A DNA stretch of 64,000 nt from Eledone cirrhosa (lineage: Eukaryota), in assembly GCA_964016885.1 (NCBI GenBank), contig OZ024742.1, forward strand, positions 224,626,001 to 224,690,000, written 5' to 3'. Under the pieces are notes generated by a model, which did no database searches, had not been told where the DNA came from, and saw nothing but the letters and a program-made list of their open reading frames with translations. Of the stretch, positions 43,310-56,300 are shown one piece after another. The translations under genes were made by a program, and so were the position numbers. Positions within the stretch are counted from its first letter, which is position 1, and the number at the start of each line of letters is the position of its first letter.

Positions 43310-43360
43310 TATATATAATAATAATAATAATAATAATAATAATAATAATAATAATAATAA

Positions 43361-44100
43361 GCCAACATAATAAAAAATGGGTGCAGCCCATTATGCCGTG
43401 TATGCAAAAAACAACCAGAGACCATTGACCATATAATTTCAATGTGCAGTCCTATAGCTCCAACGGAATACCTAAACAGGCATGACAGAGCTGCACAATA
43501 CATACATTGGATAATGTGTAAGCATTTTGACCTGCCCCATCAAAAGAATTGGTGGGAGCATCAACCACCTCCCATACTTGAAAAAGATCACATCTCAATC
43601 TTGTGGAACTTTAGCATCCAAACAGACCGAAAAATAGATGCAAATAGACCTGATATAATATTGAAGGACTTTCAAAGGAGGGTATGCCTGCTAATTGATA
43701 TGTCTGTTCCAATAGACAAGAATGTATCTATAAAAACATTTGAAAAATTGAGCAAGTATAAGGACCTGGAGATAGAAATTGGAAAAATGTGGAAATTGAG
43801 AACTAAAACAATACCAGTGGTTGTAGGCGCTCTGGGAATGATACCTAAGGGGTCTAACGACTACTTATCGCAAATCCCAGGAAACCCGCGTATAGGAGAA
43901 ATACAAAAGATAGTACTAATGGGAACTGCCCATATACTAAGGAAGATCCTGTCAATATAAGTACATCACAAGTCTAAACACTAAGGATGCATGTGTGAAT
44001 ATGTGTGTTCTTTCTTGAACATGGCGGACCTTGTTGTCTCTTGAGGTCACTGGTTGTGACTTGGTGATAACTCGTATAAACATAAAGCAAGATAAATGCA
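43361..44100 (+). mobile_element. R4/Dong-type RLE retrotransposon, family A, 5'-truncated
   Basis: CCHC finger CRVCKKQPETIDHIISMC, RHD, and RPDIIL..LIDMSVP...K..KY..L RLE motifs; stop at 43960; (AAT)n on both sides. Confidence 0.9.
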
Positions 44101-44136
44101 AATAATAATAATAATAATAATAATAATAATAATAAT

Positions 44137-46060
44137 CAGGAGGTTTTTGTCATTCAGTATGAAGACATGGAAAACGACACTCCTTTTGAATAGTGAAACA
44201 AAATCACTGGAAGCTGGAGAAGTTAATATTAATTGTGGAATTTTTCAGGGTGACTCTTTAATACCGCTTTTATTCTGCATCGCACTTATACCATTAAGTA
44301 AAATGCTCAATGAAACAAAACATGGATATAAAGTCTATGACAAAACCATTAATCACTTGTTCTACATGGATGACCTGAAACTATTTGCAAAAAACGATGA
44401 ACAATTGCAAGGGCTATTATCCACTGTGGAGCAGTTCAGTGATGACATTAAAATGGAGTTTGGACTAGATAAATGCGCCAAAGCAACGTTCACCAGAGGA
44501 AAGCTGCTGAAAAGTTCAGACATTAATCTTGATCGGGGGAATGTGATAAGAGAACTTGATCAAGAGGAAACTTACAAATATCTAGGTGTTTGTGAAGGAG
44601 ACGGAATCAAGCACTCGACAATGAGGGAAAGGATAAGGAAGGAATGTTACCGCAGAGTAAGAGCAATCTTAAGAACGGAATTGAATGCAAGGAATAGGAT
44701 CGATGCCATAAACACGCTTGCCATACCAGTAGTAACCTACAGTTACAATGTCATCAACTGGTCAAGCACAGAGATCTGTAGGCTCGATACAAAAATTCGA
44801 AAATTCTTAACCATGCACAGAATGCATCACCCTAAGACAGATACAGATAGAATATATCTCCCTAGGAAAGAAGGACGACGTGGGTTAATCCAGTTAGACA
44901 TTGCGTTGAAAACTGCAACAATTGGATTATCTACATATCTAAGGGAATCACATGATTGGATGATCAAACTCGTTTTGAAACACGAAAGCATCAAAAGATC
45001 ATAATCCATTACAAAAGATGCACAAAGATACAGTAATGGACTACAAATTTCAGAAGTCCCATTTACTGCTGAAATGGAAAACACAGAAAAATCAAAGCAG
45101 GTAAAAGTAACTGCAAAGAAAGAACTGCTACATAAACTGGCTAAGAAATAGCAAGAAAAGCCTCTGTATGGAAAATACCCAGAACGAGCTAACAATCCTG
45201 ATATTGACAAAACTTTAACCCATCAGTGGTTGGCATCCTCTGGACTGAAATCGGAGACTGAAGGTCTGATTATATCAGCACAAGATCAGTGTCTGCCAAC
45301 AAAAAATTACCAAGCCAACATAATAAAAAATGGATGCAGCCCATTATGCCGTGTATGTAAAAAACAACCAGAGACCATCGACCATATAATTTCAATGTGC
45401 AGTCCTATAGCTCCAACCGAATACCTAAACAGGCATGACAGAGCTGCACAATACATACATTGGATAATGTGTAAGCATTTTGACCTGCCCCCATCAAAAG
45501 AATTGGTGGGAGCATCAACCACCTCCCATACTTGAAAAAGATCACATCTCAATCTTGTGGAACTTTAGCATCCAAACAGACCGAAAAATAGATGCAAATA
45601 AACCTGATATAATACTGAAGGACTTTAAAAAGAGGGTATGCCTGCTAATTGATATGTCCGTTCCAATAGACAAGAATGTATCTATAAAAACATTTGAAAA
45701 ATTGAGCAAGTATAAGGACCTGAAGATAGAAATTGGAAAAATGTGGAAATTGAGAACTAAAACAATACCAGTGGTTGTAGGCGCTCTAGGAATGATACCT
45801 AAGGGGTCTAATGATTACTTATCACAAATCCCAGGAAACCCGCGTATAGGAGAAATACAAAAGATAGTACTAATGGGAACTGCCCATATACTAAGGAAGA
45901 TTCTGTCAATATAAGTACATCATAAGTCTAAACACCTAAAGATGCATGTGTGAGTATGTATGTTCTTTCTTGAACATGGCGGACCTTGTTGTCTCTTGAG
46001 GTCACTGGTTGTGACTTGGTGATAACTCGTATGAACATAAAGCAAGATAAATGCAGCTGT
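44137..46060 (+). pseudogene. R4/Dong-type family A copy with RT, CCHC and RLE, disabled
   Basis: GIFQGDSL, HLFYMDDLKL, FGLDKCA and YKYLG RT motifs; stops at ~45002 and ~45149; one extra C at ~45490 relative to the 43361 copy. Confidence 0.9.
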
Positions 46061-52902: not shown

Positions 52903-53142
52903 GTTTTTTTTGTTTAAAATGAAATTTTGGGTACAAAACCCCAATAACTGGTTATTTAACCCCGAAGGGCCAAATAACGGACAGAAAGACCCCTCTCACG
53001 AGGAGGAGGGTGTCTTTATCAACAATTTGGTTCAAGTTTTAAACAATTTACAATTGTTTTAACGGTTAAAAATTACTATACCTTACAGAGCCGAGCCTCC
53101 GTCAACCATGGCATTCAATAATAATAATAATAATAATAATAA

Positions 53143-53331
53143 AAGTTTCCAAGGATGGTTAAAGAAAATTGGCCCCGCCCCGCTTTTTGGAACACTTCAA
53201 AAGGCATGCTTGCTGGGAACAGCAAGAACCCTCCGATACGTCCTGAATATCTGAGGCTGCAGGTAGTGGCTTGATATTCATTTCAACAAACTTTCCAGTT
53301 AACTAACATCAATGATTGAGACTCAAAGAAC
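53143..53331 (+). mobile_element. R4/Dong family B 3' fragment
   Basis: FQGWLKKIGP..LFGTLQKACLLGTARTLRYVLNI* plus 3'UTR and AAT tail. Confidence 0.88.
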
Positions 53332-56300
53332 AATAATAATATTAATTATAATTGTTTCTACTTTTGGCACAAGGCCAGCAATCACCCAGTGCATTACTGG
53401 TTAACAATATTAATAAATGGAAAATATCTTTATAATACCATATTTTGAATGATAATCAACATGCCGTATAACTCATTGTTTTATACATATATATGATATA
53501 TAGTTTAGGGATTGCAACGTCAAGTTACTGTAGGTTCACCAGAGTGAGCACTTGATGCGTAGTCTCCTGTGGGTATATAGGTGTTGTACTAAGCAGGGTG
53601 TAATCATTTTTTCTACTTTTGGCACAAGGCCAGCAATTATCTCAGTGTATTACTGGTACTTTATTTTATCAATAATAATAAAAGTACGAAGTGTTAAATC
53701 TTCAATACATTCATTGAGGTGTGACGCGCGTTTCGCGATTGATCAGCACATTGTTCGATCTGTATCGATCGGGTCAGACTCTGGAATCAAAAGCTGGTCG
53801 AGCTTCTGTTATGTCACTACCATAACAGAAGTCCGACGAGCTTTTGATTCCAGAGTCGAGCCCGATCGATACATATCGAACCTTCAGTTGATAAATCGCG
53901 AAAGACGCGCGTCACACCTCAATGAATGTATTGAAGATTTAACACCTCGTTGTTTTTATTATATATATATATATATATATAAATATATATATATATATAT
54001 ATATATATATATATATATATATATATATATATATATATATATATATATATATATATATATATATCGCGAAACACGCGCGTCACACCTCAATGAATGTATT
54101 GAAGATTTAACACCTCGTTCTTTTTATTATATATATATATATATATATATATATATATATATATATATAAATCTCTCTCTCTCCCTCTCTCTCTCTCTCT
54201 CTCTCTCTCTCTCTCTATATATATATATATATACACACACACACATATATATATATATATATATATATATATATATATATATATATATATATATATATAT
54301 ATATATACACATATATATATATGTATATATATATATATATACACACACACACACATATATATATGTTTATATATATACATATATATGTAATATATATGCA
54401 TACATTATATATATATACATATAATGTATGTGTATATATATTATATATATATATGTATATATATATGTGTGTGTGAGTGTGTGTGTGTGCGTATATATAT
54501 ATATATATATACGCACACACACACACACACACATATATATATATATATATATATATATACATATATATATATAATATATATACATTATATGTATATATAT
54601 ATATATATATATATATATATATATATATAATAAAAAGAACGAGGTATTAAATCTTCAATACATTCATTGAGGTGTGAAGCGCGTGTTTCGCGATATATAT
54701 ATATATATACACACATACCTATATATATCTACCTACATACATACATACCTACATACATACATACATACATACATACATACATACATACACGTAACATCAC
54801 AATATCCTGCAAATTCAAATTTAAAATTTTCCTATTTAGACATCTTCAACTATATTTTGTCTAGACATATAAAGTCTACTGCTTCTTCTGTGAAGTATGT
54901 TCAGTTCACCATCGTAGTGTCGTGTGTTCGATACACGGTGATGCGTTGTGTCCTTGGATAAACCACTGTATTTCACATCGCTTCAGTCCGCCCACTAGGG
55001 AGGGGTGGAACAATGTATCAAGTCAGTTTCGACATACACTGCGTTACGCTAAATCTCCCTGAGAACTACGTTAAAGATACTAAGTTCTGAGTCTGATGCA
55101 CGTTGATATCAAGAGCGGGCTACTCTGTTCGAATTAACTGGTACACTCGTCGTCGAAACCGACGAAGGTCCAATACTTTTTTGTTTATTCATGAGATAAA
55201 CGTTCAAGTGCGTCCCGTTGGATCTCATCGAGAACTACGTTACGTGTATATTTGTCTGTGGAATGCTCAGACACTTGCATGTTAAATGTCATGAGCATGC
55301 TTGTTGTTCCATTGATTGGATCAACTGGAAGACTCTTCATTGAAATCGACGGAGATCCAAACCATGTTTTAGAAATATATGCGTGGGTTATGGGTAAATA
55401 ATGTGATGGATGGTATATATGTATATGTGTGTGTGTGGGGGGGGGGGTATGTGTGTGTGTGTGTGTGTGCGCGTGTGTTTGTACATGCGTGCGTGCGAGT
55501 GAGTGCATGTGAGTACATGCGTGTATTTGTGCATGCGTGCGTGTGTGCGTGTGTGGCGATGTATATATATACATATATATTATGAATGTATATATATATA
55601 TATATTGTGAATGTATATATATATATATATATATATATATATATATTGTGAATGTGTATATATATATATATATTGTGAATGTATATATATATATATATAT
55701 ATATATATATATATATATATATATATTATATATATACATATATATATATAAATATACATTCATATATACGTATATACATATATATATATATATATATATA
55801 TATATATATGTATATATGAATGTATATATATATATATATATTTATATATATATATTTATATATATATATATGTATATGTGAATGTATATATATATATATA
55901 TTTATATATATGTATATATGAATATATATATATATATATTTATATATATGTATATATGAATATAGATATATATATATTTATATATATATATTTATATATA
56001 TATATTTATATATATATATTTATATATACATGCATCGCCACAAGAGTCTCCGGTAGGCTGAACAATCAGACAATATGCTTAGTCTTTTTTTTTTTTTATT
56101 ATATGACACGCCCACGTCTCTTTACGCCTTAACAAATATATACCTTCTATCAATACTGCGTGAGGTGGAGCTATACGTATAGCCACGCCCACCATGGTGA
56201 TTTGATTGACATCTAGTTAGCCTTAAACGCTGGCTGTCTGGCTTCTTGCCTAGCTGTCTGTGTAAAGAGATCGTCTCTTCTTATTGATGAGGTTTAAGTT

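Follow-up and report, generated by a model that had tools for sequence, protein, structure and literature searches.

We analysed a 64,000-bp window of the Eledone cirrhosa genome (C3:224,626,001-224,690,000, in an assembly of 3.0 Gb; positions below count from the window start). A train of retroelements at 43,317-53,401 was found to be an ordinary example of a genome-wide habit, in which long interspersed elements (LINEs) of two endonuclease classes occupy the same (AAT/ATT)n tracts in opposite directions. The train very probably represents five separate LINE insertions beside the tail of a short interspersed element (SINE), likely made by target-primed reverse transcription (TPRT) into one tract. 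Four of these LINEs, from two families with a restriction-like endonuclease (RLE), here RLE-A and RLE-B, carry AAT on their sense strand, whereas the fifth, a Tx1-clade element with an apurinic/apyrimidinic endonuclease (APE), carries ATT. An earlier note on this DNA had proposed a target shared by the two classes with opposite polarity, which the genome-wide counts below bear out; it had also taken the locus to be special, which it is not.

Insertion polarity across the genome

Taken alone, the six elements of the window are weak evidence for polarity, as a coin toss would give the same pattern about once in 32. It is the genome-wide counts that place the polarity far beyond chance. We sought 145 element ends outside the window, three of which were dropped as the end motif was missing. 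Among the remaining 142, 140 adjoined a tract in the polarity of their family (AAT for RLE, ATT for Tx1), two had no clear tract and none was reversed. A library element lay across the tract at 101 of the 142 ends (88 LINE and 13 SINE), oriented as predicted in every case, so the orientation statistics that the earlier note had called for are not random. When all tract sides in the targeted loci were counted, the ratios of expected to reverse polarity were 105:1 for RLE-A, 158:2 for RLE-B, 115:0 for Tx1 and 48:1 for the SINE; three of the four exceptions were at head-to-head AAT/ATT tracts, with the nearer run of the expected kind. Two points weigh against this reading. The one real exception is an RLE-B 5′ end (locus L146) that adjoins a tract of reverse polarity. 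Moreover, the loci were seeded from those sequences that matched the window copies best, which biases the counts to young copies, and some junctions were counted from both sides.

We also sampled 10-kb stretches at 60 fixed positions (600 kb). The sample held 38 tracts, 17 with a neighbouring element and three with two neighbours, and trains occurred there as well. Polarity was as expected for 13/13 LINE ends, three further AAT-sense families being among them, and for 6/7 SINE ends. The fixed opposite polarity likely results from enzymes that cut opposite strands of the AAT repeat.

The tract as target or tail

The polarity could also arise if the elements had no preference for tracts and the AAT or ATT tail was written during reverse transcription, so that orientation would only mirror the tail sequence. 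The conserved degenerate AAT tail of RLE-B and the SINE (see below) would fit this explanation. For the RLE families, it is largely refuted by the 5′-truncated copies, because a tail cannot place tracts upstream of variable truncation points; at least three upstream AAT units were present at 13/16 truncated RLE-A and 44/48 truncated RLE-B ends (57/64 together), with none reversed. It is therefore beyond reasonable doubt that the tract is a target for these families. The RLE-B copies had been gathered by protein search; a DNA search with the B 3′ end gave nothing despite the abundance of the family.

The tract is a target for Tx1 too, with looser 5′ ends. It was present at the 5′ end of all 29 full-length Tx1 copies, which a tail alone would not explain, and ATT stood on both sides of the 20/20 full-length copies checked at both ends. 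At the 3′ end, (ATT)n was found in 55/57. Some observations are less comfortable for this reading. Only 9/24 truncated Tx1 5′ ends had at least three upstream ATT units (none reversed, several with two and several rearranged), and the 15 truncated ends without a clear tract are what a mere tail would leave. Given this low count, a short tract may suffice for Tx1, which could itself write part of the tract as a tail. In addition, beyond one Tx1 3′ end (L013:1800) a single ATT unit gives way to a long (CTT)n run, a target of Koshi type. Altogether, we regard a tail without any tract preference as a very improbable source of the polarity.

Tracts flanking Tx1 had a median of 8 units at the 5′ side, 15 at the 3′ side (a difference which tail synthesis would also give) and 23 in sum, while free runs (n = 25) had a median of 5. 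In a host repeat that bears a tract, counts by eye gave about 1, 4, 9 and 14 units for empty copies, against summed lengths of 22 and 39 for filled ones. These lengths fit expansion on insertion; if long tracts were simply preferred, the picture would be much the same. An empty allele of the window locus was not found. No long target-site duplication was visible in single insertions, all 20 flanking tracts being perfect beside the junction.

Structure of the window train

The order and strands of the six elements were as the earlier note described them, and none was inserted inside another. In what follows, the AAT tracts and RLE copies lie on the plus strand and the Tx1 element, its open reading frames (ORFs) and the SINE tail on the minus strand. 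The left flank is a (TA)31 tract without strand (43,256-43,317), after which (AAT)14 (43,317-43,358) leads into a 5′-truncated RLE-A copy (43,361-44,100). This copy starts at base 4,144 of the 4,883-bp full copy, retains the CCHC knuckle and the PD..D..K nuclease region, and is 99.9% identical to its best fetched relative. Beyond (AAT)12 (44,101-44,136) lies a second truncated RLE-A copy (44,137-46,060), which starts at 2,967 and runs from the reverse transcriptase (RT) to the 3′ end with stops and a frameshift. The two share 96.6% identity and differ at their 3′ termini, and by this comparison the second is a separate, older insertion. Next come (AAT)19 (46,061-46,117) and a young RLE-B copy (46,118-47,034), truncated to start at 3,935 of 4,851 bp and 99.8% identical to its relatives, which ends in a degenerate AAT/AAC tail, as young copies of family B typically do, followed by (AAT)14 (47,035-47,088).

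The Tx1-clade element (47,089-53,116) is full length (6,028 bp), with (ATT)n flanking its sense strand on both sides. Its ORF2 (47,351-50,770) is intact, with 1,139 aa from the first Met, and encodes the APE endonuclease, RT and a zinc knuckle; ORF1 (50,806-52,902) is intact as well, with 698 aa from the first Met and one CCHC knuckle, and a Pfam search with it gave no match. After (AAT)8 (53,117-53,140) there is a 3′ end only of an older RLE-B subfamily (53,141-53,331), 89.6% identical to the other B copy of the window. The train is closed by (AAT)3 with an imperfect AT-rich spacer (53,332-53,347) and by the 54-bp 3′ tail of an abundant SINE (53,348-53,401). The claim that the elements are separated only by (AAT)n stands with small qualifications. 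It fails at the last junction, where three AAT units give way to the AT-rich stretch, and there are 1-4 additional bases at several 5′ junctions.

The four RLE copies have four different truncation points, the best identities of the window copies to other fetched copies range from 97.3% to 99.9%, and the copies are unlike one another in subfamily, truncation point and age. Because of these differences the LINE copies are separate insertions of different ages. Local duplication as the source of the train was ruled out, all copies being distinct and nothing duplicated.

Trains elsewhere and spacer duplication

We annotated nine further regions, chosen for tandem hits. As many as eight Tx1 copies follow one another there, without exception in the polarity of the family. 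Head-to-tail arrays of 5-8 full-length Tx1 copies spanning 30-45 kb were found at C1:441.09-441.14, C2:110.32-110.36 and C1:234.59-234.62 Mb. A recognisable spacer was repeated in 7/9 regions. The duplicated spacer measured up to 1.9 kb, included passenger elements and ended in every case at the 5′ end of a resident copy. The regeneration of the target that the earlier note had supposed is, where it can be seen, this spacer duplication, and part of it is plain unequal crossover. Other tandem pairs show unequal tracts, so this route is not obligatory. The window train has no spacer duplication.

Alternatively, retrotransposition might do no more than seed the trains, and their growth might come mainly from unequal crossover, also where one homologue carries an insertion that the other lacks. 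The sequences of three arrays agree with unequal crossover. In the middle copy at C2:43.44 Mb, downstream type gives way cleanly to upstream type near base 2,300, and C2:68.69 Mb holds a similar mosaic with a 1,886-bp RLE-B passenger whose duplicate differs at 0/1,886 positions; both are clean mosaics of a downstream 5′ part and an upstream 3′ part, with the spacer duplicated. The third, an RLE-B array at C2:325.58 Mb, is compatible on a comparison that left aside its downstream copy. One identical pair at C1:234.6 Mb would also agree with crossover.

On the other hand, four arrays do not fit unequal crossover, their middle copies being 12-32 substitutions from the best neighbour mosaic or having no upstream partner, and they suggest nick-primed copying of a neighbour. 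All junctions at C1:441.1 Mb contain the same imperfect 51-base spacer, whose joint with the Tx1 end was found six times and nowhere outside this array. The copies of this array differ by 5-39 substitutions and two of them are 12 and 31 substitutions from the best mosaic, whereas the first copy comprises the 5′ 2,118 bases only, with an array-only allele and a spacer joint that has almost no homology. The Tx1 copy at C1:55.44 Mb stands between duplicates of an 808-bp RLE-A piece (0/808 differences); it carries 13 private alleles and is 32 substitutions away from the best mosaic. At C4:53.82 Mb, a copy that differs from its only neighbour by 67 substitutions is flanked at both ends by a 39-base imperfect tract. 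At C1:234.6 Mb, a 250-bp spacer is duplicated with no Tx1 upstream, and the outermost copy has array-only 5′ alleles (0/56 outside copies) for less than 300 bases, after which it differs. Most switch points at these four loci fall in the first 500 of the 6,028 bases. On the simplest reading, nick-primed DNA synthesis switches onto a resident copy and then copies its way back across the spacer; the same structure would result if homologues with and without an insertion crossed over. As the main force behind the trains, crossover seems to us quite improbable, and it does not apply to the window, where nothing is duplicated.

Misassembly was weighed as well, since the train or the duplicated cassettes could have been misjoined through AAT tracts or near-identical 6-kb copies. 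The two identical cassettes at C1:55.44 and C2:68.69 Mb look as a false duplication would. The junctions are not bridged by reads, as the comparison skips tracts; matches at the train were swamped by other copies, and a single read of run X8 over a 24-bp tract was too little to count. Against this, the tracts measure just 24-57 bp in a chromosome-scale assembly, the six window elements are all distinct, trains recur in the fixed-position sample, and copies within several arrays differ by 20-67 substitutions. An artefact of assembly is thus a most improbable explanation.

Proposed mechanism

On the target-primed model, nicking and priming would take place on the ATT strand for the RLE enzyme, and the AAT strand would serve the Tx1 APE. 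After an insertion, a usable, probably longer tract would remain at both of its ends, so that occupied tracts could be hit again, whereas the element bodies presumably stay whole because they lack long tracts. The SINE likely primes at any RTTAT, perhaps with Tx1 enzymes, which would make it face like Tx1 in a tract. Two same-family copies in tandem would allow trains elsewhere to grow by unequal crossover, which the clean mosaics show, and tandem trains probably grow by nick-primed copying of a resident neighbour too. More tentatively, it is possible that Tx1 finishes many of its tandem insertions by switching from its RNA onto the downstream resident 5′ end and copying back through the spacer, by which the landing site and its passengers, such as RLE fragments and microsatellite patchworks, would be duplicated, and that the train amplifies itself in this way, run by two opposite-strand enzymes, while the commonest SINE rides on Tx1; this combined scheme is rather doubtful as a whole.

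The SINE

The earlier note had made the SINE a tract-specific third player, which did not hold. In the fixed-position sample at least three ATT units followed only 2/45 SINE 3′ ends, and by the same count SINE tails were ruled out as the main seed of long tracts. A candidate duplication of at least 9 bases was found in 23/44 copies, of which 20 begin at RTTAT. These candidate duplications indicate that the SINE likely primes at RTTAT, a five-base site which also occurs within the tracts. Of the last 24 SINE bases, 15 agree in register with the end of Tx1 (post hoc p ~2e-4); 5% of control windows reached the unanchored score, and the tails of other LINEs were compared by eye only. The SINE may use Tx1 enzymes, which is a lead, and if this machinery is really shared, its facing like Tx1 in tracts would be explained. 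Elsewhere in the window (1,057-1,439), three tandem 121-bp SINE 3′ pieces were each terminated by (ATT)5-10.

Identity and activity of the families

Real genomic copies gave a full-length frame of 1,216 aa for RLE-A and 1,141 residues from stop to stop for RLE-B, and the two proteins share 36% identity. Both have the R4/Dong architecture, that is a single ORF with RT, a CCHC knuckle and a C-terminal PD..D..K (RLE) nuclease, with no APE, and both sit in the TAA microsatellite with TAA on the sense strand. A profile of 61 RLE relatives matched solved R2 proteins across RT, knuckle and nuclease, while Pfam detected RT and knuckle only in the window fragments. No named R4 or Dong protein was among the protein-search matches listed for these families, so the clade label rests on architecture, target and a resemblance in motifs. 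An Rfam scan of L126 and L151 for an HDV-like ribozyme returned simple-repeat noise and no ribozyme family, no descriptor search having been made.

The Tx1 element has the architecture of its clade, with two ORFs and with APE, RT and a zinc knuckle in ORF2. Its ORF2 matched the Xenopus laevis TX1 149-kDa protein with 299 bits and 30% identity over residues 66-900, and LINE-1 ORF2 with 180 bits over residues 69-920; on these scores it appears closer to Xenopus Tx1 than to mammalian L1. The best named match of the Tx1 protein was an Argonauta protein (73%). As dozens of intact frames per family were present among the 138-150 matches scored in own-genome searches, RLE-A, RLE-B and Tx1 are all likely active or very recently so.

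RLE-A and RLE-B share their first 370-430 bases (L126, L131, L222-L244) though their ORFs cannot be aligned as DNA. Identity of the shared region is 87% in L126 and 69-73% in 20/30 A upstream regions, which suggests a swap of the 5′ untranslated region (UTR). The RLE-A 5′ UTR also contains a 50-base SINE tail, and that of RLE-B (L142, L151) measures 1.0 to 1.7 kb, its length set by a tandem unit of ~320 bp. At least three further families with AAT at the sense-strand end join trains (L151, L016, L281, L186, L172). One of these families contains long TA/CA/AAT patchworks, in which Tx1 finds targets.

Relation to known systems

TRAS and SART are related APE elements of the R1 clade. They insert into (TTAGG)n in opposite directions, set by their endonucleases (PMC7265360), and so offer another case of two families facing oppositely in one repeat; theirs is a telomeric target used by related APE elements, whereas here a dispersed microsatellite serves two enzyme classes. 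Dong targets TAA in Bombyx, Anopheles and Biomphalaria (silkworm, mosquito and a snail; PMC3812793), with TAA repeats upstream on the sense strand, as a primer sequence indicates, and an HDV-like ribozyme at its 5′ end (PMC3774820). It is filed under APE in PMC3812793 and in the R4 lineage in PMC3774820, while R4 is listed as RLE in PMC4640811. RLE-A and RLE-B resemble Dong in the TAA target, the upstream TAA on the sense strand and the single ORF with RT, CCHC and RLE, and differ from it in that two families share the target and a 5′ end.

Tx1 families are known to target (TC)n, (TTC)n, (TTCC)n and (TTTC)n microsatellites (PMC4494074). Like Kibi, Koshi and the crocodilian families, the element described here is a Tx1-clade APE element aimed at a microsatellite; unlike them, it uses (ATT)n in common with RLE elements, and a (TC)n or (TTC)n target was not found; the one copy beside (CTT)n could point to a relation with Koshi-type specificity. 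APE and RLE lineages on one target are also seen in Keno (Tx1, APE) and Utopia (RLE), which converged on U2 snRNA genes (PMC4640811). There the target is a gene and the shared 3′ flank gives the same orientation, and mixed trains are not described in the parts of that source covered. In L1 templated insertions, the cDNA departs from its RNA and anneals to DNA close by, and a genomic segment is duplicated from templates that are typically <250 bp and within 15 bp (bioRxiv 10.1101/2024.08.27.596794, in the parts covered); in our arrays the switch would be onto a resident same-family copy, with a duplication that reaches ~890 bp and includes a passenger.

Dong-R4 and L1-Tx1 are listed as recently active in Octopus vulgaris, and a word search of that source (PMC13282606) met no mention of their targets; the portions of PMC9115989 and PMC4758252 covered added nothing on targets. 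Dong in (TAA)n, Tx1 in other microsatellites, the opposite-facing TRAS and SART, and target sharing by APE and RLE lineages (Keno and Utopia) are thus already published. In the literature covered, to which Repbase and Kojima and Fujiwara 2004 did not belong, we met neither a Tx1 aimed at ATT, nor trains that mix Tx1 with Dong, nor a Tx1 partner described for this SINE. What is new here is the duplication of spacers up to a resident 5′ end in other trains, where new copies seem to duplicate their landing site.

The result is a natural, high-copy system with intact copies, in which a single three-base repeat would be read by APE enzymes on one strand and by RLE enzymes on the other. It also suggests a concrete cause for the hotspots of transposable elements in octopod genomes, which PMC13282606 reports, in the part covered, without a mechanism. 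If neighbour copying is true, a LINE insertion would duplicate its own target and unrelated passengers, a question on which the array-only alleles bear. AAT microsatellite markers and assemblies of these genomes rest on unstable ground.

Other features of the window

A second, single RLE-B 3′ fragment lies at 30,819-31,203, with (AAT)18 and (AAT)17 on its two sides. A palindromic MITE-like element of ~290 bp was found at 53,675-53,962, 31,195-31,430 and 54,059-54,168, next to runs of AAT and TA; in one case it immediately follows the tail tract of an RLE-B copy (31,153-31,203). At 3,881-4,984 there is a G-rich minisatellite with 18 copies of a 64-bp unit.

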